This document shows positions 44,101 to 64,000 of a stretch of 64,000 bases of DNA, piece by piece. Each line of letters starts with the position of its first letter. The first letter of the stretch is position 1. The notes under the pieces were generated by a model, which worked only from the letters and a program-made list of their open reading frames with translations, was not told where the DNA came from and ran no database searches. The DNA is from a virus. The stretch lies in IMG/VR virus record IMGVR_UViG_3300042482_000285, one strand, 5' to 3'. Position numbers and translations under genes: made by a program.

Positions 44101-45829
44101 TCAGGTGAGAGCACTTGTAGCTGTAGAAAGAAATAAAAAGGCAATCGCTACATCTGTATTTGGTAGAACTGAATATAAAGATGGCGTTCTTCAATACACC
44201 CCAGACAACAACGAGAACACAAAGCTTGTTGAAGACATGATGAAATCCATCATCTATGGTCAGAAGTTTGTACAGAGTGAAACCTTTGACCAGCTTCTAG
44301 GTAACCTTGGTAAATGGGGTGAAACATTGAACACTAAACTAGGTATGAAGGTGTTCCCAGAAAACCTAGACGGTAGACAACTGAGTGTTAATAAGATAAT
44401 CAATCAGCTTAACAACACCTTCCAGATCACTACATTAGGATTGAACGTACTGTCTGCAACCTCCAACTTCTTTGGTGGTAATGCTCAGTCTGTAATCAAT
44501 TCTGGTAAGTATTTTACCAAGACAGACTATCTATCTTCTGAGGCAATGCTGTTTGTTAACAAGTTTGCTAACGTTGATGATCAAAAGAAACTGATTGGTG
44601 CTCTTGAATACTTCCTTCCTCTGACAGAAAACTACAACAGGGATGTGGCTAACAGCCTATCTCTCAATAAGTTAAACCAACAGAACCTACAGGACTTCTT
44701 GATGGTGCTCATGAGGAAGTCTGACTGGGCTGTACAGACAGCTAACTTCTACTCCTTCCTCAAGAACACAATTGTACAAGATGGAGAGGTGGTGAATGCA
44801 AGAGAATTCTTGAGATCTCAACCTAAGTATGCAGAGAAATATGCTGGTACAGTGGAAGATAGGAAAGCTTTTGAACAAGAGTTTGAGGCTGAAGTGAAGA
44901 GTCTTGTAGAAGAGAAGGGTATACTAAAGGTTGCACAAATCGTTGATAATGAATTTGTTATACCTGGTGTAGAAAGAAAATCCGACAGTGTTGTTAGGCT
45001 CAGAAGGAACGTACAACAACTTACAAAGGATGCTCTTGGTAACCTGTCTGAGGATGATTTGAGAAAGATCAACCTCACTATATACGGTAAGTCATTCATG
45101 ATATTCAAGAACTGGATCCCTCGTCTGGTAGATGTACGTATGGGTAACCTTAAGTATAATAATGCTTCAGATGCCTATGAGTGGGGAAGGATGAGAATGG
45201 TGTTCCGCATGTTGTCAGAAGACCTGATAGGAAGCCTTAATAATCTGTACGGCTCCCTTGTAGCTAATCAGAAGGGTGTTGATTTCATGAGAGAGCTATT
45301 TGAAAAGAAAAGAGCTGATTATGAAAAGGATACAGGCAAAACTCTAGATATGACAGAGGCTGAGTTCATGGACCTGGTGAGAAATAACCTCAGAAGTCAA
45401 ATGTACGATGTTATATTCCTAACAACTATGTTCATCCTCGTAGCTTCTCTCAAGGCAAACATGCCTGATGATGAAGAGGATGCAGCTACTAAGGCTAGAT
45501 ATAGATTTATGGTGAAGGCTGCTGATAAGTTTAAGGATGAATTGGCATACTTCTATGACCCCACTAGCTTCCAAAACCTCGTATCTAGTGGCATATTCCC
45601 ATCCTTAGGACTTGTAGACAACTTTAAAAAGGGCACCGTGAACTTCTTTAAAGAAAACTGGGCTCTTGCTACAGGGGATGATGAAGCTGTTGAAGAAATC
45701 AAGGTTATTAAATACTGGCTGAAGACATTCCCATTCACAAATCAGATGGCTGGATATCTCCCAATGTTCTATCCTGAACTAGCTAAAGACCTTGGTTTGA
45801 GAGTTCAATCTAACTACGGAATTAGATAG
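41141..45829 (+). CDS. Large virion protein (1562 aa); cargo/ejection protein candidate
   Basis: TAATG stop/start overlap with the giant gene. Acidic/basic coiled-coil-rich sequence; no motif recognised. Confidence 0.55.
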   Translation: MATCPNTNLDSWKELVASKGEDLAYYLWDKYDGNIPEDATVPTPDSPVASPKTIALIKDFIKRIGVDIKVLKQIEVNGVKYDDKGAALVMQKLIQVVEGKEAEALPEEAMHFAVSIIKQTNPALYKKLLGEINNYRILKDVFATYSKDPNYQIDGKPDVVKLKEEAIAKVLTQVVIDKNEGNTETLQKIANVESWWQQIIRAIKNLFAKSGFDQLAIDIMSGNEIGTAEDIREEQDAIFFSKNPQESIFDRIREVSGRIEKKEDGYYIDGKKINRRVTDIVKDWYSRRFNDKDLTKSEYAKAVDDLKREKGTAGHADIENMFKVFVDENGYLRETPLDDSTYVSQLNPSNRDMYNSLKENMEARLKSFPQGTRFMSEITVYDAKRGLAGTIDFLAVTPTGETSILDWKFMDLNVNKYTDIPWYKVNAWRQQMEQYKLILQNVYGVKPQDFRQTRMIPIQAVYSQGNAKINILPQLLSVKIGDVNVKNIADDYLLPVGLEGEKTGNKKIDALIEKLNAVYKKFSEKKVLPSEKLSKAEQLNELFTAIRQLQIKGNLKPLLRQAKILNKQIQKTIETYNSKFAGQDPSQFSQKEINSFAEELQTAQDAINTYVNLDTDLRGLFVGELSEEDRKLKDDLRDAADDARDIQSTLNDILNDYTSEIIAKSEGVDSLLSPEKIVKGITKLFASTATIQLKAMEVLYKKANKAFALAGYDTLTESKKLQSLKEAYDKWAASKGLSQKDYFNIIKKKKSNELIDEFNPEFYSTLKKNIEEKDSQWVRDNINVSEYNEFLKKKLEEEFERIENKHRVGTEVEINSEITREKNQAKLLYNTSTTESAGWLLYDFVKLFPKRETWESKEWKELNNPANKPALDFYNYIKERNEIYRELGYIGRAEARTFLPFVRKSLVEKLITGGNVRLGEQFFRDISIDEGDIGYGKIDPLTGKPIDALPKYFTKEVEGEVSDDLFRTMAMYNESAIRYQYLSEIEDQVRALVAVERNKKAIATSVFGRTEYKDGVLQYTPDNNENTKLVEDMMKSIIYGQKFVQSETFDQLLGNLGKWGETLNTKLGMKVFPENLDGRQLSVNKIINQLNNTFQITTLGLNVLSATSNFFGGNAQSVINSGKYFTKTDYLSSEAMLFVNKFANVDDQKKLIGALEYFLPLTENYNRDVANSLSLNKLNQQNLQDFLMVLMRKSDWAVQTANFYSFLKNTIVQDGEVVNAREFLRSQPKYAEKYAGTVEDRKAFEQEFEAEVKSLVEEKGILKVAQIVDNEFVIPGVERKSDSVVRLRRNVQQLTKDALGNLSEDDLRKINLTIYGKSFMIFKNWIPRLVDVRMGNLKYNNASDAYEWGRMRMVFRMLSEDLIGSLNNLYGSLVANQKGVDFMRELFEKKRADYEKDTGKTLDMTEAEFMDLVRNNLRSQMYDVIFLTTMFILVASLKANMPDDEEDAATKARYRFMVKAADKFKDELAYFYDPTSFQNLVSSGIFPSLGLVDNFKKGTVNFFKENWALATGDDEAVEEIKVIKYWLKTFPFTNQMAGYLPMFYPELAKDLGLRVQSNYGIR

Positions 45830-45869
45830 TACATAACGCTATATTATATCACTTATTTTCTCATAACTC

Positions 45870-45900
45870 ATTGAAAATACATTACTAACAACTAATTTTG
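45870..45900 (+). promoter_or_regulatory. Candidate promoter box TAATTTTG (TAnnTTTG)
   Basis: TAATTTTG at 45893-45900 with ATTG ending at 45873 (19-nt spacing). It lies 5 nt before the ATG at 45906, implying a near-leaderless transcript. Confidence 0.3.
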
Positions 45901-45905
45901 CTAAT

Positions 45906-46301
45906 ATGCGTACCGCTGCAATTTGCCCAACATGTGCTGTTTTTGAGAATGCTTTGTGCATCCTCTATAACGGTGAATATTTGCCCAATATTGACGTAAA
46001 CCCCCTAGACTCTCTAGAGGTGGCATTGGAAAAGATAAATGACAATCTAGTTCCTGTAACAGGATCTGGTGCTCCTACAGCTGGAGCCATCTATCTTGGA
46101 CAACTTTACGTGAGAACTTCTGTATCTCCAAACCTGTATTTTGCTAAGTCAGTGGGTACAGGTGCCTTGGATTGGAGGATTCTTCTTTCTATTCCTTACA
46201 CAGGAGCCCCTGAGTATGCTGACAATGCAGCTGCTATTGCTGGTGGTTTAACAAATGGTCAAGTTTACCGTACAGGTGACGTGTTGAAAATCGTACATTA
46301 A
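45906..46301 (+). CDS. Small fibre-associated protein (131 aa) sharing the N-terminal Cys/ALEKI adapter motif
   Basis: CPTCAVFENALCILYNGEYLPNIDVNPLDSLEVALEKINDNL parallels residues ~113-160 of the giant fibre (CPITLNATCVFYEGPNLIYTKINTNDNLQTALEKIEAAI). Confidence 0.5.
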   Translation: MRTAAICPTCAVFENALCILYNGEYLPNIDVNPLDSLEVALEKINDNLVPVTGSGAPTAGAIYLGQLYVRTSVSPNLYFAKSVGTGALDWRILLSIPYTGAPEYADNAAAIAGGLTNGQVYRTGDVLKIVH

Positions 46302-46309
46302 TCTAAGAC

Positions 46310-49300
46310 ATGAACGTACTTCCTAACATACTACAGTATGGAAGTAGTGGTACATCTGGTACATCAGGTGAATCACAGACTTCTGACTACGTAAATAATT
46401 TCCCAGTTTATATAGATCCAGTGGTTCCTGTGGAGCCACCACCTAGTGAATTATCATCTAGTCAGCCCTCCTTTTTGTCCAAGCTCTATGGTAGGACTCT
46501 TGTTCAGGAGACCCCTATTATTACTAGCGAGCCACTTATTTACGTTGCTGCTCCTGATCCAGTGGATCCAGCAGACAACCAATCGTTCATGTCTAAGCTA
46601 TTTGCTAATGCAAATAACAATACAGCTTTCACAAGCAGCCCAGTAGTATGTGCTGCTAATCCTTGTCCTATCACATTGAACGCCACCTGTGTGTTCTATG
46701 AAGGACCCAATTTGATCTATACAAAGATCAACACAAATGACAACCTCCAGACAGCTCTTGAGAAGATAGAGGCAGCTATTGCTGACGAACTTGCAGGAAG
46801 CTCTGGTACGAGTGGCACTTCTGGCACCTCAGGAACGTCTGGTACAGCAGGTACTTCAGGTACCACTGGCACCAGCGGAACTTCAGGCACAAGTGCTACA
46901 GCAGGTACTAGTGGCACCTCAGGTAGCTCTGGCACATCTGGTACAACAGGAACAAGCGGTACGAGTGGTACTGACGGTAGTGGAGGAACCTCTGGAACCT
47001 CTGGGACGTCTGGAACATCTGGTACTAGTGGCACTGCTGGAACCAGTGGCACCTCTGGTACTACGGGTACAAGTGGCACATCAGGTACAGATGGTAGTGG
47101 TGGCACATCAGGCACTTCGGGTACATCTGGAACCAGTGGTACAGCTGGCACCTCAGGTACAAGCGGAACCACAGGAACTAGTGGCACTAGTGGGACAACT
47201 GGTACCTCAGGTACATCAGGCACCCATGGTACATCAGGTACAACTGGTACTAGCGGTACGTCTGGGACAACTGGAACTTCTGGAACCTCAGGCACTACAG
47301 GTACGTCTGGTACCTCAGGCACTTCTGCAACGAGTGGTACGAGCGGAACCAGTGGTACAGATGGAACAGGAGGTACGAGCGGTACATCTGGTACATCAGC
47401 CACTAGTGGAACTAGTGGTACAACAGGAACTAGTGGGTCAAGTGGCACCAGTGGAACCTCTGGAACATCAGGAACTGATGGCTCAGGAGGTACTTCTGGC
47501 ACATCGGGTACATCTGGTACAGATGGAACTAGTGCAACATCAGGAACTTCTGGTTCTTCTGGAACATCAGGAACCTCTGCAACTAGTGGAACTACAGGTA
47601 CTTCTGGTACGTCAGGTACTGACGGAACAGGAGGAACTAGTGGTACGTCAGGTACATCTGCCACCTCTGGATCATCAGGCTCTTCTGGAACTGATGGAAC
47701 AGGAGGCACATCAGGTACCAGTGGAACCAGTGCGACCAGTGGTACGTCTGGAACTACAGGAACCTCAGGTAGTAGTGGTACAACTGGTACGTCTGGTACG
47801 AGTGGGACCGCTGGTACAAGTGGAACAGATGGTTCTGCAGGTACATCAGGTACAAGTGCAACGAGTGGAACAAGTGGTACAAGTGCTACATCAGGCACGT
47901 CTGGAACAAGCGGAACTACTGGTACATCTGGTAGCTCTGGTTTGAGTGGAGATAGATTTGCTACAACATCAAGTACAACATATACATTAGGAGGTGTTGG
48001 TTCCTCAGGAACTATCACAGTGGGGACAGGACTAGCCTACACAGTGGGTCAGTCTATCATTGTTGCCTACGATGCTAATAATCACGTAGAAGCTGAGGTG
48101 ACTTCATACAATCCAGCAACTGGCGTATTGAGCTTCACTGTATTTAGACTTACAGGGTCTGGTACATATAGTTCATGGCAAGTAAACTTGGATGGTGCTA
48201 CAGGTGGTGATGGTTCTAGTGGATCATCAGGAACTAGTGGTACATCTGCAACAGCTGGTACCTCTGGTACGACAGGTACATCAGGTTCAAGTGGTACGTC
48301 TGCTACGTCAGGTAGCTCAGGTACTACAGGAACTAGTGGAACTGACGGTACAAGTGGAACCAGCGGCACCACAGGCACATCTGGCTCAAGCGGTAGTAGT
48401 GGATCTTCAGGAAGCAGTGGTTCTAGTGGAACATCTGCCACTTCTGGAACTTCTGGTACATCAGCTACAGATGGTACAGGGGGCACTAGTGGAACTAGTG
48501 GGTCCTCAGGATCAAGCGGTAGTGCTGGAACAAGTGGTACAGCAGGTAGTCCTGGTACGTCTGGAACTAGTGGTAGTTCTGGAACAGCAGGATCGTCAGG
48601 AACCACAGGTACATCTGGAACTTCTGGAACAACAGGTACCAGTGGTACTAGTGGTGTATCTGGAACCTCTGGAACTAGTGGTACAAACGGTACAGGTGGA
48701 ACATCTGGCACCTCTGGAAGCAGTGGAACATCTGGGTCTAGCGGTACAGCAGGTTCATCTGGTACTAGTGGAACATCAGGTACAGCAGGTACTAATGGTA
48801 GTCCAGGAACCTCTGGCACAAGTGGATCAAGTGGATCTAGTGGTACAAGCGGTACGACAGGTACCAGTGGAACCTCAGGTTCTTCTGGATCTAGTGGTAT
48901 AAACGTTGGATCAAGTGCTGTAATTGTACTTGGTGCAGGTGCTTGTTCTTCTGTTAGATGTGGCGTTAGCAATAGTGCAACAGGTGGTTACACAGGTAAC
49001 TTGGCAGGTACAAGTAACACCATGAGTGGATGCTGTTACAACGTTATAGTTGGTGGATTTAACAGTACTGCAAGCGGAACATATTATGCGTTTATAGGTA
49101 ATGGTAGTACAAACACGGCAAGTGGCAGTGTTTCATTTATAGGTACAGGTGGGAGCAACATCGCTTCAGCAGATTATGCTTTTATTGGTAATGGTGCAGG
49201 AAATACAGCTTCAGGTAGTTTTGCAACTATTGTAGGAGGTACAGTTAATACGGCATCAGGAACATGTTCTTTTATTGGTGGAGGTTTTTGTAATACTGCT

Positions 49301-52300
49301 TCAGGAACACATGATGTTGTTGTGGGTGGATTATACAATAGGGCAACATCTTCTGCCCAATCATTTATAGGAGGTGGTTGCTACAACTATATTTCAACAG
49401 GTGTTTGGAATACCATCACGGGTGGTATTTGTAACTGTATTACAGCAGGAGGATATGGATTTATTGGTGGTGGATATAGAAACTGCCTGATAAATAGCGC
49501 AACAGAATCTGCTGTAGTTGTTGGAGGTACTAATACTGTATCTGCCTCTTATTCAGGTATTCTTTCAGGAGCTTTAAATAGTGTATCAGGCGCACGTTCT
49601 TCTGTTTCAGGAGGTTGCCAAGTTACAGCGAGTGGCGCATTCAGCCATGTTGGAGGTGGTTGTTTAAATACAGCATCAGGAACAACAGCAGGTGTGTTGA
49701 GTGGTAGAGGTAATGCCGCAGGAGGTAATTGGTCTTCTGTAAGTGGTGGTTATAATAACTCAGCAGGCGGTAATGAATCTCATGTAGGTGGAGGTAATGC
49801 AAACTCTGCTTCAGGATGTATGTCATTGGTTGGTGCAGGTTTTGGTAACACTGCATCAGGTTTAAGGTCAGGTATTGGTTCAGGTCAATGTAACACAGCA
49901 TCAGGTAACTATTCTTTTGTTGGAGGTGGTGTTAGCAATTTAGCTTGTGGTGTTTACTCTACAGTGACAGGCGGTATAGTAAACGAAGCAAGAAGTACAG
50001 GAGCTGTAGCGGGTGGTTATGCCAACACTGCAAGTAATAGATATTCAGCAGCTCATGGTGGATTGTCTAACGTTGCTCAGGGTATTTCATCTGTTATCGC
50101 AGGTGGTCAATCTAACTATGTTTGTAACTCAACATCAGGATGCCTTGCTTATGGAGCAGTTGTCACAGGTGGTGTTGGTAATAATACCACGGGTGGGACT
50201 TGGAGTTTAGCTTCCTGTGCGTTTACGGTAGCACCAACTCCTTGTAATGTAGGACAATACTCTTTCATAGGCGGCGGATTTCAGAATAGAGCAGGAGGAA
50301 ATTATAATTCAGTAGTAGGAGGATTTTGTAATAGTACAGGTACAAGTGGATACACCGCAATTGCAGGTGGTTTTTGTAACACAGCTTCTGCAAACTATAA
50401 CTTTATAGGAGCAGGTCAAAATAACTGTATTATTTCTACAGGAGGAATGTCTATACTTGTTGGTGGCTATCTAAATACAGTTAGTAGCACATATAGCTTT
50501 TTAGGAGGAGGTAGAAGTAACTTAGTCTCAGGAGCTTGTTCTGTAATAGTTGGAGGTAAAAGTAATACAGCATCAGGATATATTTCAGCAATAGGTGGTG
50601 GTCAGTCAAATATAACATCAGGAAGTTTTACTTTTGTCGGTGGTGGTAATGGGGTGTGTGCCACATCTTGTTTGGCAACAGCTGTTGGAGGAGCAAATAA
50701 TAGAGCATCGGGAGCAAGAGCGTTTGTAGGTGGTGGTTCAGCCAACACTTCTTCAGGATATATTTCAGTAGTAGTTGGTGGTGATTCGAATACATCAAAT
50801 GATAGATATGGTGTTATAAGTGGGGGGGCTGTCAATACTGCATCGAACACTTATGCAACGGTGTCGGGAGGTCTAAGTAATACAGCTTCAGCGAGTAGAG
50901 GAACAGTAGCAGGTGGTACAGGAAACACAGCAAGTGGATATGCAGCTTTTGTTGTAGGTCAAAACAACACAGCAAGCGGGAATAGAGCTACAATTAGTGG
51001 AGGTAGAAATAATACATCATCAAGCACATATTCGACAGTCTCAGGCGGTTATAGAAACAGGGCTACACAATATGCTACAACTGTGAGTGGTGGATATGGT
51101 AACTATTCATGTGTTACACAAGGAACTGTTGGGGGCGGTATATGTAATAATCTTTGCAGTAGCGTAAGTGCTTCTTGCGGAGCAGGAGCAACGATTGCAG
51201 GTGGTGTTGGTAACAACACAACAGGTGGTACATTTAATCCTGCAACAGGTCAGTTTTCTGTTGCACCAACCGCAATATGCAACGCAGGTCAATTCTCTTT
51301 CATAGGAGGAGGATTTTCAAATGTAGCTACAGGAGCATATTCTGTTTTAAGTGGTGGGCAATGCAACACTGCAAGTGGATATAGGAGTTTTGTAGGTTCA
51401 GGTTATCAAACTGTAGCATTAGGTTGTCATAGTGTAGCTGTTGGAGGTTTGTTTAACTGTGCAAGTAACTGTGCAGTAGTGGTAGGTGGTTGTGTTAATA
51501 CAGCTTCAGGTGCTTATTCTTTTATTGGAGGTGGTAGAACACACACAGCAAGTGGTACTTGGTCTACCATTTCAGGTGGATATGGTAACCTTGCAAGTGG
51601 ACAAATATCAGTAGTTGCAGGAGGTTATGGAAGTAGTGCAACAGGTTGTCGTGCTGCAACCTTGGGGGGTCAATCAAATGGTGCATCAGGCGCATGGGCT
51701 ACAGCAGGTGGTGGAATTAGTAATGTTGCATCAGGAGAATCATCAGTGGTAAGTGGTGGTGATAGTAACACAGCAAGTGGTATTCGTGCAGCAATAGGTG
51801 GCGGTTTAGCAAATACAGCAACACAATGTGTATCTACTGTAGCAGGTGGAGACTATAATGATGCTACAGCAAACAGAGCATTCATAGGTGGTGGATATAA
51901 TAATACAGCTTCTTCAAGCTATACCACTGTATCAGGTGGTTATCAAAATACGGCATCTGCTACAAGGGCTACTGTTGCAGGTGGTCAGTTCAATTTTGCC
52001 ACAGGTAGCCAATCGATAGTTGGCGGGGGTATATGTAACTGTGCAACCACTTCAAATTCACATATTGGTGGCGGTCTTAGAAACTGTGTTGTAGGAAGCA
52101 TGGAAGCATCCACAATAAGTGGAGGTTATGGTAATATAGTTTGTGGTTCAGGTTGTGAAGCAACTATTGGAGGTGGTCGTGGAAACCGTACTGTTGGTTG
52201 GTGGACATTTGTAGGAGGTGGTGTTGGAAACGTGGCTTCTGCTGAAAGTTCTATTAGTGGCGGTGCATTAAACACAGCATCAGGATATAGGTCTTCTGTA

Positions 52301-55300
52301 TCAGGTGGTTGGTGTAACGTTACATCAGGTTGTCAAGCGGGTGTTTTGAGTGGATGTGGTAATACAGCATCAGGATATAGAGCAGTTGCTGTTGGTGGCG
52401 GTTCAAATATATCTTCAAATAGTTGGTCAACAGTAGGTGGAGGTAGAAATAACACAGCTTCAGGTTGCATGTCCTTTATAGGTGGTGGCTGTGGAAACAC
52501 TGTTTCGGGTGGTTATGCTTCTTCTCTTTTAGGTGGATGTGGTAACACAGCATCGGGAACAAGGTCTACCGTAGGTGGTGGAATGTTGAATACAGTAACA
52601 GGAGCATCAGGAACAATAGCAGGTGGAGAATATAACTGTATTTGTAGTGCAGGCATATTTGGAATCATATCAGGTGGATATTGTAGCATAGTTTCAGGAT
52701 GTTCTGCATCAATATTAGGTGGTAGAGCTAATTTAGCATCAGGAGATTGTTCAACAGTGGGTGGCGGTCAAGCAAACTGTGCAACAGGTGCTTTTTCAGC
52801 AATAGTGGGAGGAGACCAACATGCTGCCACAGCTTCAAGAGCATTTATAGGTGGTGGTTATGACAATACCGTAAGTAACGGTTATGGAGCTATAACAGGA
52901 GGTTATCAAAACAATGCTTCTTACATGGCTTTTGTAGGTGGAGGTAGAGGAAGCACAGCATCAGGAAACTATTCAACAGTAGCAGGGGGACAGTCTAACA
53001 CTGCTTCAGGAACTGTATCAACAGTTGGTGGAGGTGCAGGGCATACAGCTTCAGGATATCGTTCTGTTATCAGTGGTGGACACGCAAATTATGCTACAGC
53101 ATCTTGTTCCGCAGTAGGAGGTGGATATAACAACATTTCTTCAGGAGGATTTGCTTTTGTTGGTGCAGGTACAGGTAACACCTCTTCAAGTTCAGCAACA
53201 TTTATTGGAGGTGGTTATTATAATGTTGCAAACTGTGGATATGCTTCAGTGGCAGGAGGACAACAGAACACAGCAAGTGGAAGATATTCATTTGCAGGTG
53301 GTGGTCTTTGCAACCTTTCCAATGGTGATATGTCAACTATTGGTGGAGGTTCATGGAATAAAATAATTAGTTCAATAGCTACTTGTTGTGCAACAGGAGC
53401 TACTATTGCAGGCGGTGTAGGTAACAATACATGTGGTGGAACATTTAATAACTATGGTGTTCCAACTGTAAACCCAACAGTTGTATCAGCAGGTATTTAT
53501 TCTACAATAGGAGGTGGTTTTCAGAATAGGGCAGTGGGAGAATACTCTGTAGTTTCAGGCGGTATTTTTAATGTTGCAAACACAATATATTCATTTGTTG
53601 GTGGTGGGTATGGACACCTTGCTTCAGGTCAAGCTGCAATGATAGGTGGAGGTCGCTCCCATACAACATCTAATACTTATGCTACAGTACTAAGTGGATA
53701 TAACAGCACTGCAACGGGTTACGCTTCAACAATTTCAGGAGGTTATCAAAACATTGCTTCGGGTACTGATGCTGCAATATCAGGTGGTCGTGCTAATACA
53801 GCAACAGCCTTAGCAGCTTATGTTGGAGGAGGAAGATATAATGATGCAACAAATAATGTAGCCACTATAGCAGGTGGATATGATAACACAGCTTCAGGTG
53901 GATACTCAACTGTAGGTGGTGGATTAGGTAACTGTGCTACAGGATGTATATCTGCTGTAGTGGGTGGTAGACAAAGTTGTGCTACAGGTTGTTATGCTTT
54001 TGCAGGAGGTGGTTACAATAGTAAAGCTACAGCTTTTGCAACTACAACAAGCGGTGGATATGGAAACTTAGCTTCAGGAAATTCATCAACAGTATCAGGT
54101 GGTAGAATAAATACAGCTTCTAATGGTTATGCTACAGTTGCGGGAGGTTATCAAAACACTGCGAGTGGTGCTTATGCTTTTGTAGGTGCAGGTAGTATAA
54201 GTTCAGCAGGTGGTGACTGTGCTGTAATGGTAGGTGGTAAAGCAAATGCCGCAAGTGGTAATATATCATTTCTTGGTGGAGGATGTACAAACACCGCATC
54301 GGGACAAAATTCAGTTGTTGTTGGGGGATGTAATAACACATCAAGTGGTAATACATCAAGTATTTTAGGAGGTAGAGGTAACTCTACGTCTACTGCTTGT
54401 AATAGTATAAGCGGTGGATATGGTAATATAATTACAGCTTCAACAGGTCGTTCTTCAATTGTTGGTGGTAGTTCTAACTGTATAGGAGGTTCAGGTCTTG
54501 CATTTATTGGAGGAGGTAATACAAACACTATATCAGGTAGTTATTATGGAACTATAGCAGGTGGTGTAGGAAACACTACCTCAGCTTGGGCAAACTTTAT
54601 TGGAGCAGGTACATTCAATGTCGTTTCAGGAGGTTGTGGTGCAGTTGCAGGTGGTAATGGGAACACTGCTTCGGGGGGAGCATCTGCTATAGGTGGTGGT
54701 AGAGGTAATACGGCTTCAGGCACTTATTCTAAAGTCGGAGGAGGATGTTCAAATACTGCATCAGCTTCAAGGTCAACAGTAGTAGGTGGATTCCAAAATA
54801 CTGCATCATTTTATGCTTCATTTGTTGGAGGAGGTAGTTTTAACACAGCAAGTTGCTATTGTTCTTTTGTTGGTGCAGGTAATGGTAACGTAGCTTCAGG
54901 TAATGGTTCTGCGGTTGTAGGAGGTCAATCAAATTCTGCATCCAATCTAAATTCATTTGTAGGTGGAGGTAGAGCAAACTGCGCTTATGGAATTTGTTCA
55001 ACAGTTGGAGGAGGTTATAATAATAGGGCAAACCTATACAGCACTGCTGCGGGAGGTCTAAGTAATAATGCTACAGGTACTACTTCAACCGTAAGTGGTG
55101 GTTATAGTAACACAGCAAGTGGTACATACGATGCTTCTATTGGAGGTGGTGCATCGAATAGTGCAAGTGGAAATAAGTCAAGAGTAGGAGGTGGACAATC
55201 TAACGGTGCTACGGGTACAGCTTCTTTTGTAGGAGGTGGTTGTGCTAACACTGCGTCAGGCTATCGTTCAACAGTAAGTGGTGGTTTATCTAATGTAGCT

Positions 55301-56482
55301 TCAGGAGATAGAGCAACGGTAGGTGGTGGTGGTGCAAACTGTGCTACAAATACAGGAGATACTATTTCAGGTGGTATTAATAGTAGAGCAGGTGGTGCTT
55401 ATGGTACAGTTTCAGGTGGTTACAATAATAGTGCTACAGGATATATGGCTGTTATTGGTGGTGGTTGTATAAACTCATCAACATCAAACGCATCAACAGT
55501 TAGTGGAGGTCAGCAAAATTCAGCATCAGGTGCATGTTCCACTGTGGGTGGTGGTATTACAAATAGTGCATCTGGTACAAAATCTACCATTGCAGGTGGT
55601 CAAACAAACACTGCATCAGGATATAACTCATTTATCGGAGGTGGATATGCTAACCAAGCAACACAAACATATAGCTTTGTTGGTGGTGGAGACGAAAATA
55701 TTATTTCATCAGGTGCAAGAGGTGTAATTAGTGGTGGTCAAGGTAATAGAATATGTGGTACATCATCAGGATGTAATACAATTGGTGGTGGATATTTAAA
55801 CTGTATCACTACAGGATTTGTAAATACAATTGGTGGTGGTTATAACAATAGAATAGTAGGTGGCTCTTACCACGTCATAGCAGGTGGTTATAGTAACCAA
55901 ATATCATCAAATACAGAATCAGGTATATTAACAGGTGGTGCTAATACAGTATCAGGTACATACTCAGTAGTAGTTGGTGGTCAAGCAAACACAGCATCAG
56001 GGATATGCTCAGGGGTGTTAGGAGGTAGAAGTAACACAGCTTCAGGAAATCATTCTTCAGTACTTGGTGGATGCGGTAATGTAATATCAGGAAATTGTTC
56101 AGGTGGTGGAGGTGTAGGAATATCAGGAACTTGCTCATCTACTTTTTATTGGAATAACTTTTGTGCAACGTCTTGTATGTGGGCAGTTGCATATTTTGAA
56201 TCTTCTGACGAGCGTTTGAAGGATATTCATTGCACTGTAGGATCTTGTGACTCCATCAATCCTATCTATTTCAAATGGAAAGAAGGTGACGCAAGTGTTA
56301 TTAACATAGGATATTCTGCACAGAACGTGAAGGAAGTGCTTCCTCATACAATCAGAACAGATGAGAAGGGCTACTATAACGTAGACTACCATCAGGTGCA
56401 CATCTATAAAATAACTAAACTTGAGGAACGCATCACACAGCTTGAGGATATAATCAAAAAACTATCATCATGTCTTGGGTAG
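46310..56482 (+). CDS. Giant tail fibre (3390 aa): N-terminal adapter, two collagen-like GXY tracts, Hep_Hag/YadA-like beta-roll repeat array, C-terminal S74 intramolecular chaperone domain
   Basis: Two tracts of (G-T/S-S/T/A)n triplets. About 160 copies of a 14-15-aa repeat S-x-V-G-G-G-x-x-N-T-A-S-G-x-x. C-terminal ...YFESSDERLKDIH... matches the S-D-x-x-x-K Ser-Lys dyad of endosialidase-type intramolecular chaperone (peptidase S74) domains. Confidence 0.8.
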   Translation: MNVLPNILQYGSSGTSGTSGESQTSDYVNNFPVYIDPVVPVEPPPSELSSSQPSFLSKLYGRTLVQETPIITSEPLIYVAAPDPVDPADNQSFMSKLFANANNNTAFTSSPVVCAANPCPITLNATCVFYEGPNLIYTKINTNDNLQTALEKIEAAIADELAGSSGTSGTSGTSGTSGTAGTSGTTGTSGTSGTSATAGTSGTSGSSGTSGTTGTSGTSGTDGSGGTSGTSGTSGTSGTSGTAGTSGTSGTTGTSGTSGTDGSGGTSGTSGTSGTSGTAGTSGTSGTTGTSGTSGTTGTSGTSGTHGTSGTTGTSGTSGTTGTSGTSGTTGTSGTSGTSATSGTSGTSGTDGTGGTSGTSGTSATSGTSGTTGTSGSSGTSGTSGTSGTDGSGGTSGTSGTSGTDGTSATSGTSGSSGTSGTSATSGTTGTSGTSGTDGTGGTSGTSGTSATSGSSGSSGTDGTGGTSGTSGTSATSGTSGTTGTSGSSGTTGTSGTSGTAGTSGTDGSAGTSGTSATSGTSGTSATSGTSGTSGTTGTSGSSGLSGDRFATTSSTTYTLGGVGSSGTITVGTGLAYTVGQSIIVAYDANNHVEAEVTSYNPATGVLSFTVFRLTGSGTYSSWQVNLDGATGGDGSSGSSGTSGTSATAGTSGTTGTSGSSGTSATSGSSGTTGTSGTDGTSGTSGTTGTSGSSGSSGSSGSSGSSGTSATSGTSGTSATDGTGGTSGTSGSSGSSGSAGTSGTAGSPGTSGTSGSSGTAGSSGTTGTSGTSGTTGTSGTSGVSGTSGTSGTNGTGGTSGTSGSSGTSGSSGTAGSSGTSGTSGTAGTNGSPGTSGTSGSSGSSGTSGTTGTSGTSGSSGSSGINVGSSAVIVLGAGACSSVRCGVSNSATGGYTGNLAGTSNTMSGCCYNVIVGGFNSTASGTYYAFIGNGSTNTASGSVSFIGTGGSNIASADYAFIGNGAGNTASGSFATIVGGTVNTASGTCSFIGGGFCNTASGTHDVVVGGLYNRATSSAQSFIGGGCYNYISTGVWNTITGGICNCITAGGYGFIGGGYRNCLINSATESAVVVGGTNTVSASYSGILSGALNSVSGARSSVSGGCQVTASGAFSHVGGGCLNTASGTTAGVLSGRGNAAGGNWSSVSGGYNNSAGGNESHVGGGNANSASGCMSLVGAGFGNTASGLRSGIGSGQCNTASGNYSFVGGGVSNLACGVYSTVTGGIVNEARSTGAVAGGYANTASNRYSAAHGGLSNVAQGISSVIAGGQSNYVCNSTSGCLAYGAVVTGGVGNNTTGGTWSLASCAFTVAPTPCNVGQYSFIGGGFQNRAGGNYNSVVGGFCNSTGTSGYTAIAGGFCNTASANYNFIGAGQNNCIISTGGMSILVGGYLNTVSSTYSFLGGGRSNLVSGACSVIVGGKSNTASGYISAIGGGQSNITSGSFTFVGGGNGVCATSCLATAVGGANNRASGARAFVGGGSANTSSGYISVVVGGDSNTSNDRYGVISGGAVNTASNTYATVSGGLSNTASASRGTVAGGTGNTASGYAAFVVGQNNTASGNRATISGGRNNTSSSTYSTVSGGYRNRATQYATTVSGGYGNYSCVTQGTVGGGICNNLCSSVSASCGAGATIAGGVGNNTTGGTFNPATGQFSVAPTAICNAGQFSFIGGGFSNVATGAYSVLSGGQCNTASGYRSFVGSGYQTVALGCHSVAVGGLFNCASNCAVVVGGCVNTASGAYSFIGGGRTHTASGTWSTISGGYGNLASGQISVVAGGYGSSATGCRAATLGGQSNGASGAWATAGGGISNVASGESSVVSGGDSNTASGIRAAIGGGLANTATQCVSTVAGGDYNDATANRAFIGGGYNNTASSSYTTVSGGYQNTASATRATVAGGQFNFATGSQSIVGGGICNCATTSNSHIGGGLRNCVVGSMEASTISGGYGNIVCGSGCEATIGGGRGNRTVGWWTFVGGGVGNVASAESSISGGALNTASGYRSSVSGGWCNVTSGCQAGVLSGCGNTASGYRAVAVGGGSNISSNSWSTVGGGRNNTASGCMSFIGGGCGNTVSGGYASSLLGGCGNTASGTRSTVGGGMLNTVTGASGTIAGGEYNCICSAGIFGIISGGYCSIVSGCSASILGGRANLASGDCSTVGGGQANCATGAFSAIVGGDQHAATASRAFIGGGYDNTVSNGYGAITGGYQNNASYMAFVGGGRGSTASGNYSTVAGGQSNTASGTVSTVGGGAGHTASGYRSVISGGHANYATASCSAVGGGYNNISSGGFAFVGAGTGNTSSSSATFIGGGYYNVANCGYASVAGGQQNTASGRYSFAGGGLCNLSNGDMSTIGGGSWNKIISSIATCCATGATIAGGVGNNTCGGTFNNYGVPTVNPTVVSAGIYSTIGGGFQNRAVGEYSVVSGGIFNVANTIYSFVGGGYGHLASGQAAMIGGGRSHTTSNTYATVLSGYNSTATGYASTISGGYQNIASGTDAAISGGRANTATALAAYVGGGRYNDATNNVATIAGGYDNTASGGYSTVGGGLGNCATGCISAVVGGRQSCATGCYAFAGGGYNSKATAFATTTSGGYGNLASGNSSTVSGGRINTASNGYATVAGGYQNTASGAYAFVGAGSISSAGGDCAVMVGGKANAASGNISFLGGGCTNTASGQNSVVVGGCNNTSSGNTSSILGGRGNSTSTACNSISGGYGNIITASTGRSSIVGGSSNCIGGSGLAFIGGGNTNTISGSYYGTIAGGVGNTTSAWANFIGAGTFNVVSGGCGAVAGGNGNTASGGASAIGGGRGNTASGTYSKVGGGCSNTASASRSTVVGGFQNTASFYASFVGGGSFNTASCYCSFVGAGNGNVASGNGSAVVGGQSNSASNLNSFVGGGRANCAYGICSTVGGGYNNRANLYSTAAGGLSNNATGTTSTVSGGYSNTASGTYDASIGGGASNSASGNKSRVGGGQSNGATGTASFVGGGCANTASGYRSTVSGGLSNVASGDRATVGGGGANCATNTGDTISGGINSRAGGAYGTVSGGYNNSATGYMAVIGGGCINSSTSNASTVSGGQQNSASGACSTVGGGITNSASGTKSTIAGGQTNTASGYNSFIGGGYANQATQTYSFVGGGDENIISSGARGVISGGQGNRICGTSSGCNTIGGGYLNCITTGFVNTIGGGYNNRIVGGSYHVIAGGYSNQISSNTESGILTGGANTVSGTYSVVVGGQANTASGICSGVLGGRSNTASGNHSSVLGGCGNVISGNCSGGGGVGISGTCSSTFYWNNFCATSCMWAVAYFESSDERLKDIHCTVGSCDSINPIYFKWKEGDASVINIGYSAQNVKEVLPHTIRTDEKGYYNVDYHQVHIYKITKLEERITQLEDIIKKLSSCLG
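46796..47950 (+). repeat. Collagen-like Gly-X-Y tract 1 (~128 triplets), about 9-nt periodic DNA
   Basis: Uninterrupted G-[TSA]-[STAG] triplets (GTSGTSGTAGTSGTTG...). Nucleotide repeat unit ggtac(a/t)tc(t/a)gg(a/t)ac. Confidence 0.85.
48201..48900 (+). repeat. Collagen-like Gly-X-Y tract 2 (~78 triplets)
   Basis: GDGSSGSSGTSGTSATAGTSG...SSGSSG, separated from tract 1 by a roughly 85-aa globular insert. Confidence 0.85.
48901..56110 (+). repeat. Ser-rich 14-15-aa beta-roll (Hep_Hag/YadA-head-like) repeat array, about 2400 aa
   Basis: Periodic GG(G)xxNTASGxxSxV units, many containing Cys (GGGFCNTASG, GGICNCITAGG); no stop for 7.2 kb. Confidence 0.7.
56201..56482 (+). other. C-terminal intramolecular chaperone / auto-proteolysis domain (peptidase S74-like), predicted to be cleaved off
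   Basis: SSDERLKDI at nt 56201-56227. Hydrophobic/charged alternation and a terminal coiled coil (ITKLEERITQLEDIIKKL), as in K1F endosialidase, T5 pb1 and phi29 gp12 C-termini. Confidence 0.6.
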
Positions 56483-57246
56483 GAATAGCAAATAACCAAA
56501 CTGTATCGTTTAACAATCTGCAGGATGCTGTGACAAATGGTTATTTTGTTGCTCTTGCAGCTATTCCTGCAAGCCAAGAACAAATCACCAAAACAGATGC
56601 TTCCACATATGCAAATATTGATACCGCATATGGTCCATATGCAGCTAAAGCAAGCAACCAGCTTGTTGTAAAAAGCAACCTCAGACCAATAAGTTATGCC
56701 TACACCATCTACTACGAGGAAGCTTGTTACTATGATGGATTTTATATTGAGGGAGGTGCTGCAAGTGGTGACATAGCGTGTGGTAACACTCTCACTATAA
56801 CACTATACAGTCCTGTTTCATCATTTGCAAACGGGATGAAACTATTCTATGATTCAGCATGTAGCAATCCTTGGTATGGAGATACAGGAGGATGTGGTCA
56901 GTATTATAAAGTGATTATTGCTGGATCTTCATACTCGTTCACCTATCCAAACTCAGGCTCAACTGTTCAGAATTTAACACCTTGCGCTCTCCCATGTGAA
57001 TGTTATGTTCTTTACAACGATGACAATATTGATATTTCAATATCTTTCTACGAGTGTGGTGGAAGCACAACAACTCCTGAATGTTTAACTTGTGCTGCGG
57101 CTTCTCAAATATATATATGTGTACAGGGAGGTCAAGGTAATAACTACTTCGTTAGCTATGGTACAAACTGTGCAGGTGGTCCTGTTCCTGCTTTTACACT
57201 TGTAGCTTTAGGAACAAACTGTACAACAGGCGGTGATTGTATCTAA
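56470..57246 (+). CDS. Hypothetical fibre-associated protein (258 aa), Cys-rich C-terminus
   Basis: ATG embedded in the last 13 nt of the fibre gene (translational coupling); contains CECYVLYND...CLTCAAAS. Confidence 0.5.
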   Translation: MSWVGIANNQTVSFNNLQDAVTNGYFVALAAIPASQEQITKTDASTYANIDTAYGPYAAKASNQLVVKSNLRPISYAYTIYYEEACYYDGFYIEGGAASGDIACGNTLTITLYSPVSSFANGMKLFYDSACSNPWYGDTGGCGQYYKVIIAGSSYSFTYPNSGSTVQNLTPCALPCECYVLYNDDNIDISISFYECGGSTTTPECLTCAAASQIYICVQGGQGNNYFVSYGTNCAGGPVPAFTLVALGTNCTTGGDCI

Positions 57247-57292: not shown

Positions 57293-57667
57293 ATGGCAAA
57301 TTCTTGGAACACTCTTCACATTTTCGGTTTTGGAACTGTGCAAGCAATCTCTGACACACAGAACGTACAGGCTCCTATATCAGCTTTTCAGGCTGAAGTG
57401 GATGCTGTAGTGAATGATGTATGGAACAACAAACCTGCAGGATATACAGGTCCTAAAACTTTCCATGCTATCAACAACTTTGATGGTCTTTTCTCTGACT
57501 GGCTTCCTAATGAACCTAACGTAGAATCATTCAGAGTTCAGGCAGCTGACTTAGATCAATCTTTGTTAGATGCATTGGCAGATGGCGTACTTGCTTATGT
57601 TCCTCCTACCACAACGACCACTACCACTAAGAATATCACTACCACTAGCACAACAACGGCTAAATAA
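57293..57667 (+). CDS. Small protein (124 aa) with a C-terminal poly-Thr tail
   Basis: Ends PPTTTTTTTKNITTTSTTTAK; candidate TAACTTTG box 20 nt upstream (57266-57273). Confidence 0.45.
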   Translation: MANSWNTLHIFGFGTVQAISDTQNVQAPISAFQAEVDAVVNDVWNNKPAGYTGPKTFHAINNFDGLFSDWLPNEPNVESFRVQAADLDQSLLDALADGVLAYVPPTTTTTTTKNITTTSTTTAK

Positions 57668-57720: not shown

Positions 57721-58602
57721 ATGAACATTATATTCCAAATCAATGGTGGTATAGGAAAGTGCATACTGGCAACATCTGTATGTGAAGCTATCAAGGCGCA
57801 ACATCCTGATAGTCAATTAATTGTAATGAGCGGTTACCCAGAGGTGTTTTTAAACAACCCCTTTGTGGACCGCTCATTTGCATTTGGTCAAGCCCAATAC
57901 TTCTATCAAGACTTTATTGAGAACAAGGAGTTCAAGGTGCTTGCACACGATCCCTACCTAGAAACAGCACATCTATTGCAGAATGAACATTTGTCCAAAA
58001 CCTGGGCAGAGATGTTTAACATCAAGGCTCCTGAGGATGTCACACCAAAGATATACATCACAGAAAGAGAGAAAACATTCTTCTCTAGTAAGTTTAACTC
58101 TGATGCCCCCATCCTCCTTATACAAACTAATGGTGGTGCGCAGGGACAAGAGCTTAGATATTCATGGGCTAGGGATATTCCTACAAACATTGTACAGGCT
58201 GTTATAGAAGAGTTTAAGAACACACATAACATTGTACACATAAGGCGTGAGGATCAAATAGGATATGAATTTACCACTCCTGTTACAGATAACTTCAGAG
58301 CGCTAGCTGTTCTTGTATCTCTCAGTGACAAACGTTTGCTCATGGACAGCTTTGGTCAGCACACAGCTGCTGCTCTAAACAAACCTTCTACAGTGCTTTG
58401 GGTAGCTAACACACCTGTGGTGTTTGGATATGATGTACATGATAACATTCTAGCCAACCCATTTACCAAAAGACCTGAGCTTAAACATTCTTATTTTCAG
58501 AAGTTTGACATCTCTGGAAACCTATTGGAGTTTCCTTACAACAATGAGTCTGAGATGTTTGACGTTGATAAGGTGATTGCATCTATTAAAAACCAAAAAT
58601 AA
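57721..58602 (+). CDS. GT9-family (LPS heptosyltransferase-like) glycosyltransferase
   Basis: N-terminus IIFQINGGIGKCILATSVCEAIKAQHPDSQLIVMS resembles the GT9 opening (ILVIrlsslGDvilttP.l.alk..yP.a.i..l). C-terminal MDSFGQHTAAALNKPSTVLW resembles the GT9 GnDSGpmHLAaAlg.P.V.lfG motif. Confidence 0.6.
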   Translation: MNIIFQINGGIGKCILATSVCEAIKAQHPDSQLIVMSGYPEVFLNNPFVDRSFAFGQAQYFYQDFIENKEFKVLAHDPYLETAHLLQNEHLSKTWAEMFNIKAPEDVTPKIYITEREKTFFSSKFNSDAPILLIQTNGGAQGQELRYSWARDIPTNIVQAVIEEFKNTHNIVHIRREDQIGYEFTTPVTDNFRALAVLVSLSDKRLLMDSFGQHTAAALNKPSTVLWVANTPVVFGYDVHDNILANPFTKRPELKHSYFQKFDISGNLLEFPYNNESEMFDVDKVIASIKNQK

Positions 58603-58603
58603 T

Positions 58604-59422
58604 ATGGAGAAGATATTCTATCAGAGCTCACTTCCAAGAGCTGGGTCTACGTTATTGCAGAACATATTAGCACAGAACCCAGACGTATATGCTACACCTA
58701 CAAGTGGTGTGCTTGAGCTTGTGTTTGCAGCCAGGGCTAATTACACAGACTCTCCTGAGTTTCAAGCACAAGATCCAGAGGTAATGAAAACAGCTTTTCA
58801 AGCTTTCTGTAAACATGGCATGGACGCTTATTACAATGCTATTACAGATAAGAAGTATGTTGTTGATAAATCTCGTGGATGGGGTATACACTATGACTTC
58901 CTTAACTTTGTTCAACCTGATCCAAAGATCATATGCATGGTGAGAGACCTCAGAGATGTATTTGCTTCTATGGAAAACAACTATAGAAAGCATCCTGATA
59001 AGGCTAATGCTATTCTCAACTGGGCACAGATGACTGGAACAACAGTTCCTAAACGTATAGACATCTGGGCACAATCTCAACCTATTGGTCTTGCTATCGA
59101 GAGGTTGGGTGAGCTCTTTAGACTAGGATATGCAGACAAAATACTCTTTGTTAAGTTTGAAGACCTATGTCTCTATCCTGAGACAGAGATGACAAGGATA
59201 TATCAATACCTTGGCATCCCATATTTCAAGCACGACTTTGACAACATTGAGCAAGTGACTAAGGAAGATGATGAAGTGTATGGTCAGTTTGGTGACCACG
59301 TGATTAGAAAGAAACTTGAGCCTGTACAGTCTAGAGCTAAGCAGCTCCTTGGTAAGGATGTAACAGATTGGATTTACACAAACTACAAATGGTTCTTTGA
59401 TCAATTCAGATATAGCAAATGA
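58604..59422 (+). CDS. PAPS-dependent sulfotransferase
   Basis: 5'-PSB motif LPRAGSTLLQNIL (P-K/R-x-G-S/T-T). 3'-PB motif MVRDLRDVFASM (R-D/N-P/L-R-D...S). The ATG at 58604 directly follows the upstream stop, so the track start at 58577 was rejected. Confidence 0.7.
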   Translation: MEKIFYQSSLPRAGSTLLQNILAQNPDVYATPTSGVLELVFAARANYTDSPEFQAQDPEVMKTAFQAFCKHGMDAYYNAITDKKYVVDKSRGWGIHYDFLNFVQPDPKIICMVRDLRDVFASMENNYRKHPDKANAILNWAQMTGTTVPKRIDIWAQSQPIGLAIERLGELFRLGYADKILFVKFEDLCLYPETEMTRIYQYLGIPYFKHDFDNIEQVTKEDDEVYGQFGDHVIRKKLEPVQSRAKQLLGKDVTDWIYTNYKWFFDQFRYSK

Positions 59423-59847
59423 TTATAGTATTATTCGGACAGCCACACAGTGGTAAGACAACATTAGCAAACCAGTTTGCAGGTCATGTTAACATTGATG
59501 GAGACCAACTTAGAAAGATTTTTGAAAACAAAGACTACTCTAGGGAAGGAAGAATCAAGAACCTAAATAGGGCTAGTGACATTGCTCACTATCTCAACAG
59601 TGTAGGTAAGAGTGTAACCCTATCTCTAGTCTATCCTTATAAAGAAGCTAGAGACTACCTGAACAGTTTAACACCTAATGTAAGATGGGTATATTTACAC
59701 TATGATGGTGAGAGAGGAAGAGAAGGATTCCATGTAGGAGATTTTGATAAACCTGGAGATGATGAACAGGTTATGCAACTTAACACCTCTGCTACGTCTG
59801 TAAAAGAATGTTATACCACAATATACAATTGGGCATATGGTGAATAA
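59419..59847 (+). CDS. cysC: Adenylylsulfate (APS) kinase-like P-loop kinase
   Basis: P-loop LFGQPHSGKTTLA followed by NIDGDQLRKIF...REGRIKNLNRASDIAHYLNSVGKSVTLSLVYPYKEAR. This parallels the CysC pattern LDGDNVRHGL...DRKENIRRVGEVAKL..AG.VVL.AFISPhR.eR. Overlaps the upstream stop (ATGA). Confidence 0.65.
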   Translation: MIIVLFGQPHSGKTTLANQFAGHVNIDGDQLRKIFENKDYSREGRIKNLNRASDIAHYLNSVGKSVTLSLVYPYKEARDYLNSLTPNVRWVYLHYDGERGREGFHVGDFDKPGDDEQVMQLNTSATSVKECYTTIYNWAYGE

Positions 59848-63982: not shown

Positions 63983-64000
63983 ATGTTCGTTAGATTGTAC

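Follow-up and report, generated by a model that had tools for sequence, protein, structure and literature searches.

The 64,000-nucleotide stretch of viral DNA from IMG/VR record IMGVR_UViG_3300042482_000285, here called the window, contains one gene of 10.2 kb (46310..56482, plus strand) that probably encodes a homotrimeric virion fibre of giant size. The phage is uncultured and a distant relative of the Crassvirales, and the fibre most probably serves as a tail or receptor-binding fibre. The product has 3390 aa (316.8 kDa per chain, or 306.2 kDa after a predicted cleavage) and consists of an N-terminal region, two collagen-like tracts separated by a small barrel, a very long beta-roll, and a C-terminal chaperone domain of the Peptidase_S74 family. 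From its family membership, the S74 domain would trimerise, nucleate folding of the adjoining beta-roll in the C-to-N direction, and then cleave itself off at Ser3299 by means of Lys3304. Each chain is modelled as a left-handed beta-roll with 15 residues per turn and about 150 turns in all; three such rolls may pack as they do in the heads of trimeric autotransporters. Two Gly-Thr-Ser triple helices, with the barrel between them and 13 sites of Gly-to-Ala replacement, would provide a long, semi-flexible stalk, and the N-terminal region with its 3-Cys motif, judging from the position of the motif and from its sharing by four proteins, would anchor the fibre to the particle. The stalk, essentially free of proline and charge, is probably O-glycosylated by a TibC-family transferase of the phage itself.

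Using canonical rises of 0.286 nm per collagen residue and 0.48 nm per beta-solenoid turn, we computed a length of about 250 nm for the mature fibre (about 111 and 68 nm for the collagen tracts and 75 nm for the roll). A trimer would weigh about 0.95 MDa, and its predicted length is about three times the 88 nm of the crAss001 capsid, which suggests that phage fibres can be scaled up by joining known trimeric modules. The modules and their pairing are already known; the scale, the collagen chemistry and the link to a BAHT-family transferase are new.

Architecture of the fibre

The reading frame comprises 3390 codons and a stop, with no internal stop across 10.2 kb. A first-pass annotation, made from the sequence alone, had described just such a single uninterrupted frame, and its modules were found at the places it had given. 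Its description of a chimeric modular fibre also stands, while the assignment to the tail is likely but was overstated. Repetitive coding DNA carries a general risk in metagenome assemblies, and the frame could reflect repeat collapse or expansion, or a chimeric join of several genes. The lack of any stop speaks against such an origin, however, as does the divergence of the DNA: both kinds of unit, collagen and beta-roll, show a similarity of only 60–80%, and long exact repeats are absent. The succession of N-terminal motif, collagen, beta-roll and S74 domain recurs at similar lengths (2959–3200 aa) in at least five independent IMG/VR assemblies (L002, 3200 aa; L005, 3020 aa; L011, 3086 aa; L014, 3083 aa; L028, 2959 aa), and a multiple alignment shows conserved module boundaries. 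Because the repeats are divergent and the same module order is found on independent contigs, assembly collapse was rejected, and an artefact of any of these kinds seems to us hardly credible. Additional ORFs of 236–433 aa occur in other frames or on the opposite strand of the collagen-coding DNA (46717..48018, minus; 46779..47945, plus; 48082..48972, minus; 48192..48902, plus), and are most simply explained as by-products of stop-free triplet repeats, not as genes.

The fibre terminates in a Peptidase_S74 intramolecular chaperone of 92 aa and 10.6 kDa (aa 3299–3390, 56204..56479, plus). Scanned alone, this domain scores 25.9 bits with Pfam PF13884, which has a cutoff of 22, and each of the nine related C-terminal domains is matched too. 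Its SDERLK sequence occupies residues 3299–3304, placing Ser and Lys five residues apart, and the Ser, Asp, Arg and Lys are invariant in an alignment of nine C-terminal domains of the family, which confirms the S74-type chaperone with a Ser-Lys dyad at nt 56204 that the first-pass annotation had recognised. A profile of the C-terminal domains matches the S16 fibre (6f45, 1.6e-9), MYRF (7dc3, 2.5e-6) and the T5 pb1 L-shaped fibre (8hqz), and the AF2 model of the domain shows a beta core followed by a long terminal helix of about 30 residues. Auto-cleavage is predicted between Ser3298 and Ser3299, with Ser3299 (codon 56204..56206, plus) as the predicted nucleophile and Lys3304 as the base, and would release the last 92 aa. 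S74-bearing fibres and spikes, including the K1F endosialidase, T5 pb1 and S16, have the same domain at their extreme C-terminus, with the SDxxxK dyad and the terminal helix, and by analogy the window fibre may also be expected to fold as a trimer and then to be released from its chaperone. In the known S74 fibres the domain folds a triple beta-helix or beta-prism, whereas here it would fold a beta-roll of the trimeric-autotransporter type.

Most of the chain (aa 885–3277, 48962..56140, plus) is an array of 15-aa repeats with the consensus [VI][GS]GGxxNTASGxxS[TF], amounting to about 150 turns. At lags 15 and 30 the autocorrelation is 0.33 and 0.29, respectively, over a background of about 0.08. 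There are 135 strong copies, 106 of them at exact 15-residue spacing, and an HMM scan placed 150 copies over residues 885–3277, in an array with space for about 158 turns. The tandem array itself had been noticed before, as about 160 repeats of 14–15 aa; the period is 15 and the copies number 135–150. The AF2 model of residues 3001–3390, based on 64 homologues, has a pLDDT of 92.5, and in Foldseek its top PDB match is 3pr7, the UspA1 head (E 3.4e-7; 276 columns aligned at 32% identity), followed by BpaC (7o23), UspA1 (3ntn), CbpF heads and the ryegrass ice-binding roll. The Moraxella UspA1 head is also the best match of the repeat sequence among solved structures (phmmer, E 4e-4). These fold and sequence matches argue for a left-handed parallel beta-roll of the trimeric-autotransporter-head type. 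When the repeat region was scanned by Pfam in five 500-aa pieces, LbR_Ice_bind (PF21300, 'grass antifreeze beta roll') exceeded its cutoff in three, UspA1_rep (PF18792) reached at best 25.1 bits against a cutoff of 27, and Hep_Hag (PF05658) gave no match at E <= 1. The resemblance to YadA heads and Hep_Hag that had been proposed holds as a YadA/UspA1-like roll, but not as membership in Pfam Hep_Hag. No PHROG family matches the beta-roll, and only the collagen and S74 parts of the fibre have PHROG matches.

The window fibre shares with UspA1, BpaC and YadA-type heads the 15-residue repeat, the left-handed parallel beta-roll and, presumably, the function of a trimeric adhesive rod. The UspA1 repeat (YSTIGGGxxNxAxGx) and that of the window fibre, in the same register (xS[TF][VI]GGGxxNTASGx), have nearly the same consensus. 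Unlike the autotransporters, the window fibre is Cys-rich, begins with collagen, ends in S74 and is encoded by a phage, and it has about 150 turns, whereas the UspA1 head construct, of 292 residues in 15-residue turns, has about 19. A Pfam scan of the fibre found no anchor, neck or coiled-coil stalk, and the N-terminus has no segment resembling a signal peptide. Because these parts are missing, we conclude that the fibre has the head fold but is not a trimeric autotransporter.

Three related inserts of about 45 aa each, overlooked in the first pass, interrupt the array at aa 1278–1319 (50141..50266, plus; motif GAVVTGGVGNNTTGGT...), aa ~1620–1664 (51167..51301, plus; GATIAGGVGNNTTGGT...) and aa 2344–2399 (53339..53506, plus; GATIAGGVGNNTCGGT...). 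A Ser at fixed positions of every repeat had been claimed, which overstates its regularity: repeat position 10 is Ser in 89 of the 135 copies (Ser or Thr in 116) and position 14 is Ser in 74 (Ser or Ala in 104), and the sequence NTASG occurs exactly 29 times in the fibre. The enrichment in Cys is real, as 88 of the 94 Cys of the fibre lie in the beta-roll, where they make up 3.5% of residues compared to a median of 0.4% in the repeat regions of homologues; roll-bearing relatives of the clade have 2.2–3.0% Cys over the whole protein. The roll Cys occur at the variable repeat positions 5, 6, 8, 12 and 13, and 16–34% of them are position-conserved between orthologues, much like Tyr or Arg. Both properties argue against the metal binding that had been suggested, and we rejected defined metal or disulfide sites as an account of these residues. 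Opportunistic disulfides in the roll are possible; the tails of crAss001 are disulfide-stabilised (PMC10172136).

The two collagen-like tracts, earlier estimated at about 128 and 78 triplets, were counted as 129 unbroken Gly-X-Y triplets in tract 1 (aa 163–549, 46796..47956, plus) and 79 in tract 2 (aa 629–865, 48194..48904, plus), and the Pfam Collagen match on the fibre has an E value of 1e-52. The triplet GTS accounts for 77 of 129 triplets in tract 1 and for 110 of 208 over both tracts, with Thr predominating at X (89% in tract 1) and Ser at Y (73% in tract 1). Position 1 is Gly in 120 triplets and Ala in nine in tract 1, and Gly in 75 and Ala in four in tract 2; these 13 Gly-to-Ala changes are the sole departures at that position, and the frame does not shift anywhere in either tract. 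Only three Pro occur within residues 163–865, and there are 10 charged residues in tract 1 and three in tract 2. Bacterial collagens, which have no hydroxyproline, owe their stability to polar and charged residues and a hydration network, and Pro is their commonest X residue, filling about 19% of X positions (PMC8968730). The tracts do not show these usual features of Pro in X and of polar or charged residues for a hydration network.

Their composition, nearly without Pro and charge and in this unlike the bacterial collagens reviewed in PMC8968730, would also be in keeping with extended, heavily O-glycosylated, mucin-like spacers, or with some other polyproline-II-type assembly. The co-occurrence of phage glycosylation enzymes with Gly-Thr-Ser tracts (see below) and the poly-Thr tails of other ORFs in the window fit that interpretation as well. 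However, the Gly-X-Y frame is held over 129 and 79 triplets, and over up to 563 in relatives, with position 1 changing only from Gly to Ala here, and a disordered linker would have no reason to keep such a frame. Trimerising modules are also present on both sides of the tracts. We consider spacers of this kind unlikely, and favour collagen triple helices. A Thr-rich Gly-X-Y stalk between globular ends, as proposed here, is found in Bacillus BclA, C. difficile BclA3 and the collagen-like tail fibres of E. coli O157 prophages.

Between the tracts lies a domain of about 79 aa (aa 550–628, 47957..48193, plus) that escaped the first-pass annotation and that AF2 models as a small six-stranded beta-barrel (pLDDT 81.7). 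A Foldseek search with the barrel returned generic small-barrel matches only, all non-significant (E >= 0.025), and a homologue search returned six fragmentary homologues only.

A TibC/BAHT-family transferase and its candidate substrate

An ORF on the minus strand that runs off the end of the window (62930..64000) carries a C-terminal TibC/BAHT-family heptosyltransferase domain, which is a candidate modifier of the collagen tracts. The domain matches PDB 4rap with an E value of 5e-49, and the Cys aligned with C339, C342, C358 and C370 of TibC are all present. The downstream BAHT mentioned in the first-pass annotation is accordingly a genuine TibC homologue with the four Cys of the iron finger. 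In relatives, the TibC-like domain is the C-terminal 350 aa of a protein of about 1150 aa, in which it forms the GT9 part and is fused to a methyltransferase (aa 41–128) and a GT1-family glycosyltransferase (aa 636–775) (e.g. L038 7577..11050). The iron-finger motif is present on more than 119 IMG/VR contigs.

To test the acceptor proposed in the first-pass annotation, the Ser of the beta-roll, we performed a co-occurrence test on 32 related IMG/VR loci (within L237–L315), each anchored on a homologue of ORF 57721..58602 and having full 10-kb flanks. The TibC-like domain was present in 13 of 13 loci with GTS collagen and in none of the 19 without it (p = 2.9e-9). Among 27 non-redundant clusters, the corresponding counts were 11 of 11 and 0 of 16 (p = 7.7e-8). 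The beta-roll showed no association with the domain (p = 0.25 for all loci and 0.66 for the non-redundant set), and 12 loci with a beta-roll but no collagen, bearing 26–76 motif copies each, all lacked the transferase. Fibres with collagen only (L008, L019 and L027) are located on contigs that carry a BAHT. This pattern, which comes from gene content, makes the collagen stalk a better substrate candidate than the NTASG Ser, and suggests that the phage transferase modifies the stalks and not the roll.

The first-pass annotation had instead regarded the fibre, because of the periodic NTASG Ser of its beta-roll, as the most likely BAHT substrate. With these Ser as the main acceptor, the roll would correspond to the beta-helices of AIDA-I and TibA. 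TibC glycosylates Ser on beta-helix loops through its iron finger (PMC4358343), the phage domain retains that finger, and the roll presents about 160 Ser at two repeat positions. That proposal fails the co-variation test, however: none of the 12 related loci with a roll fibre but without collagen has a BAHT, whereas the match between GTS collagen and BAHT is perfect, and BAHT shares contigs with fibres that have collagen only. Moreover, the repeat consensus, including a small residue at position 14, is common to UspA1 and to homologues from bacterial genomes and metagenomes, one of which lies among bacterial housekeeping genes with no BAHT in its called neighbours, and it therefore looks dictated by the fold. 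We judge it distinctly improbable that the roll Ser are the main acceptor, and retain the collagen stalk as the preferred substrate.

A sugar-modification island lies downstream of the fibre (58577..62456, plus). It consists of a sulfotransferase (58577..59422), an APS-kinase-like gene (59419..59847), a cupin (59837..60202), a small HAD-like phosphatase (60187..60489), and homologues of heptose-1-P adenylyltransferase (60486..60887), heptose-7-P kinase (60862..61599) and ADP-heptose 6-epimerase (61596..62456), all on the plus strand; the three heptose genes are named after their best NCBIfam matches, which fall below the equivalog cutoff. Across the 32 loci, the sulfotransferase was present in 29, with collagen or without, and heptose-synthesis genes were present in two, one of which (L265) has no TibC-like domain within 10 kb. 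We tentatively propose, as a serious possibility and not as an expectation, that the (Gly-Thr-Ser)n stalks of the window fibre and of many relatives are O-heptosylated on Ser/Thr by a phage TibC/BAHT enzyme fused to a GT1-family domain and a methyltransferase, that the donor is made here by the HldE/HldD homologues, and that the glycan is perhaps sulfated.

Glycosylated Thr-rich collagen-like proteins such as BclA offer a precedent (PMC8968730), and glycosylated prokaryotic collagen-like proteins come with a dedicated glycosyltransferase (PMC8968730, PMC7157674, PMC3368898). The window stalk differs from those of the BclA type in having essentially no Pro, and in that its candidate transferase is of the TibC/BAHT family. 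To our knowledge, no member of that family acts on collagens. The systems formed by TibC or AAH with TibA and AIDA-I resemble the window in their homologous enzyme domain, in the adjoining homologues of ADP-heptose synthesis genes, and in the candidate substrate, a long, Ser-rich, repetitive surface fibre. The window enzyme is unlike TibC and AAH in being the C-terminal part of the ~1150-aa fusion (in relatives), in being encoded by a phage, and in co-varying with collagen and not with a beta-solenoid. We found no paper on phage BAHTs or on Crassvirales sulfotransferases. The co-occurrence yields a specific and testable substrate hypothesis, the Gly-Thr-Ser collagen-like tracts, for a phage relative of the autotransporter heptosyltransferases. 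If it is true, this would be the first viral BAHT, and the first with a collagen substrate instead of an autotransporter beta-helix, and viruses and collagens would both be added to the known range of protein heptosylation. The stalks of this virion fibre, about 250 nm long, would then be a viral collagen stabilised by glycans. Such stabilisation would account for a stable collagen that has neither proline nor charge pairs, and would be relevant to host recognition, to the glycosylation of virions and to designer collagen materials.

Poly-Thr tracts were observed in two small ORFs, 57293..57667 (plus; PPTTTTTTTKNITTTSTTT) and 11427..11954 (plus; TTTTTSTSTSSTTTTTTT), the second of which also has the N-terminal Cys motif of the fibre and many other Cys. 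Both products are possible further targets of O-glycosylation.

The N-terminal region and the presumed attachment to the particle

In the extension formed by the first 112 residues (46310..46645, plus), one sequence is duplicated internally (PSFLSKLYG / QSFMSKLFA), and there are Pro-rich segments and a short GSSGTSGTSGES stretch. This extension is conserved in L001–L008, and its start recurs in L019 and L027. The 3-Cys motif follows at aa 113–160 (46646..46789, plus; C-x4-C-x7-CVxYxG..L....I.T.D.L..A..KI). It is a lineage-wide feature that opens the fibres of 35 IMG/VR relatives, in most of them at the extreme N-terminus and not, as in the window fibre, after an extension. Three further ORFs of the window begin with it: residues ~104–157 of the fibre are 43% identical to both ORF 11427..11954 (E 1.7e-6) and ORF 45906..46301 (E 4.8e-5), with a weak match to ORF 10302..11405 (E 0.08), and the spacing of the Cys is identical across the four proteins. 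The sharing of such an adapter motif had been noted in the first pass, with two partners in place of three. ORF 45906..46301 (plus), which encodes 131 aa directly upstream of the fibre, is 78–98% conserved in relatives. Fibres of crAss001 attach by short N-terminal segments (PMC10172136), and from its position and its sharing among proteins the 3-Cys motif is presumed to be a virion-attachment or registration module.

We consider a tail fibre the likely form of this attachment. S74 chaperones are known from fibres of the tail or neck and from spikes: the matches of the domain are tail fibres in the PDB, and in BFVD they bear the names tail fibre, tail protein or neck appendage. Among the proteins that share the N-terminal motif, the product of ORF 10302..11405 is matched by PHROG families of tail proteins and tail fibres. 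A fibre or decoration of the capsid, promoting adherence to surfaces or particles and not receptor binding by the tail, would find parallels in crAss001, in which trimeric and dimeric head fibres dock via N-terminal segments of 38–58 aa (PMC10172136). The presence of the motif in four window proteins would suit many equivalent docking sites, such as hexon pockets, and the gene follows giant internal-protein genes, whereas the tail fibre genes of crAss001 adjoin the portal. Nevertheless, the motif is unlike the N-termini of the head-fibre proteins gp21 and gp29, and the named matches point to the tail. A head location appears to us improbable, though it retains a real share of the probability.

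Several observations weigh against the interpretation of this gene product as a trimeric, self-cleaving and glycosylated tail fibre. We infer by analogy its presence in the virion, its trimeric state and its cleavage. The profile of the N-terminal motif showed no similarity in hhalign to crAss001 gp22, gp21 or gp29 (probabilities 0.2–0.6%), and on this comparison tail and head attachment are therefore indistinguishable. The Pfam S74 score was 18.4 bits on the full-length fibre and 21.8 on a 493-aa piece, both below the cutoff of 22. Since the collagen tracts are without Pro and charge pairs, a triple helix is uncertain absent modification. The identity of the beta-roll across the five relatives compared, 44–54%, is subject to ambiguous alignment of the repeat units. 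Finally, the loci of the co-occurrence test are related to each other and the genes are physically linked within 10-kb flanks, such that shared ancestry could give part of the signal.

Relatives and genome context

The genes around the fibre keep their order in 34 loci, while the fibre itself varies in its modules. Besides the five relatives with the full architecture, L025 (2483 aa) has beta-roll and S74 without collagen, and others keep the N-terminal motif and GTS collagen but differ in their distal modules. The L019 fibre (1902 aa) is almost wholly Gly-X-Y, with 563 triplets, and that of L006, which exceeds 3502 aa and runs off its locus, has almost no beta-roll motifs. These differences suggest that an environmental crAss-like lineage freely exchanges distal fibre modules. 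Compared to its closest orthologues, L002 and L005, the window fibre is 95–99% identical in the collagen tracts and 46–54% identical in the beta-roll. Because it is the most variable part between orthologues, the beta-roll is the likely host-binding surface.

The family of 15-aa rolls is very large, with 16,045 cluster representatives at E <= 1e-3, many of which carry S74 at the C-terminus under the name 'tail fiber domain-containing protein'. Its giants (at least 2000 aa, and up to 3858 aa) are mostly cellular proteins with a signal peptide and without collagen, and among those listed the strict repeat motifs number 65 or fewer, compared to 105 in the window fibre. Predicted proteins that pair YadA-like repeats with S74 are found in uncultured Caudovirales and giant-virus bins in BFVD and among bacterial tail fiber domain-containing proteins; none of them is characterised, and some also have collagen, the BFVD structure predictions including viral proteins with collagen, roll and S74 together. 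A drawing published in 2014 shows YadA-like and S74 domains in the tail fibre of a marine phage (PMC3909814). We found no paper on collagen in crAss fibres.

The fibre gene closes a long structural module on the same strand, which includes the portal (95..2677), the major capsid protein (4647..6200), several 'virion structural protein' families and giant ORFs of 1871, 3870 and 1562 aa. The portal is about 26% identical to the portals of gut crAss-like phages and is matched by 139 phage records, including phages of Bacteroides, Flavobacterium and Cellulophaga among others; from this similarity, we assign the window to an uncultured and distant member of the crAss-like phages. Megablast searches of the GenBank phages, with 25 kb of the window and with the fibre gene, gave no match. 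The same collection was also negative in tblastn, both with the N-terminal motif and with repeats joined to the C-terminal domain, but there the low-complexity filter may have masked the repeats. Within the fibre gene, G+C climbs to 0.43–0.49 and the GC skew is about +0.27, as expected of Gly-rich coding sequence. A scan for promoters and terminators around the gene gave results at chance level.

A Cys-rich ORF of 258 aa with 14 Cys (56470..57246, plus) overlaps the stop codon of the fibre by 13 nt and has no family match. Its homologues occur only where the fibre has the same S74 subtype (L002, L004, L005 and L011), L004 being without beta-roll, and its product may be a tip or assembly partner.

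The 5' end of the fibre gene is strongly mosaic, as seen over 41141..46795 in comparison with L001, L002 and L012. L001 and L002 are 95% identical to the fibre N-terminus but only 30% identical in the adjoining 1562-aa protein, whereas L012 is 92% identical in the 1562-aa protein and only 61% in the matching part of the fibre N-terminus. Two of the giant ORFs lie directly upstream of the fibre, at 29529..41141 (plus, 3870 aa) and 41141..45829 (plus, 1562 aa). No PHROG matches the 3870-aa ORF, and a weak exonuclease-like stretch is all that was recognised in the 1562-aa ORF; the position of both is kept in 33–34 relatives at 26–92% identity. Like similar products of crAss phages, the two may be internal or cargo proteins that are ejected. 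Amid the virion structural module there is also an SbcD-like 'DNA repair exonuclease' (12128..13384, plus; PHROG 704, E 5e-48).

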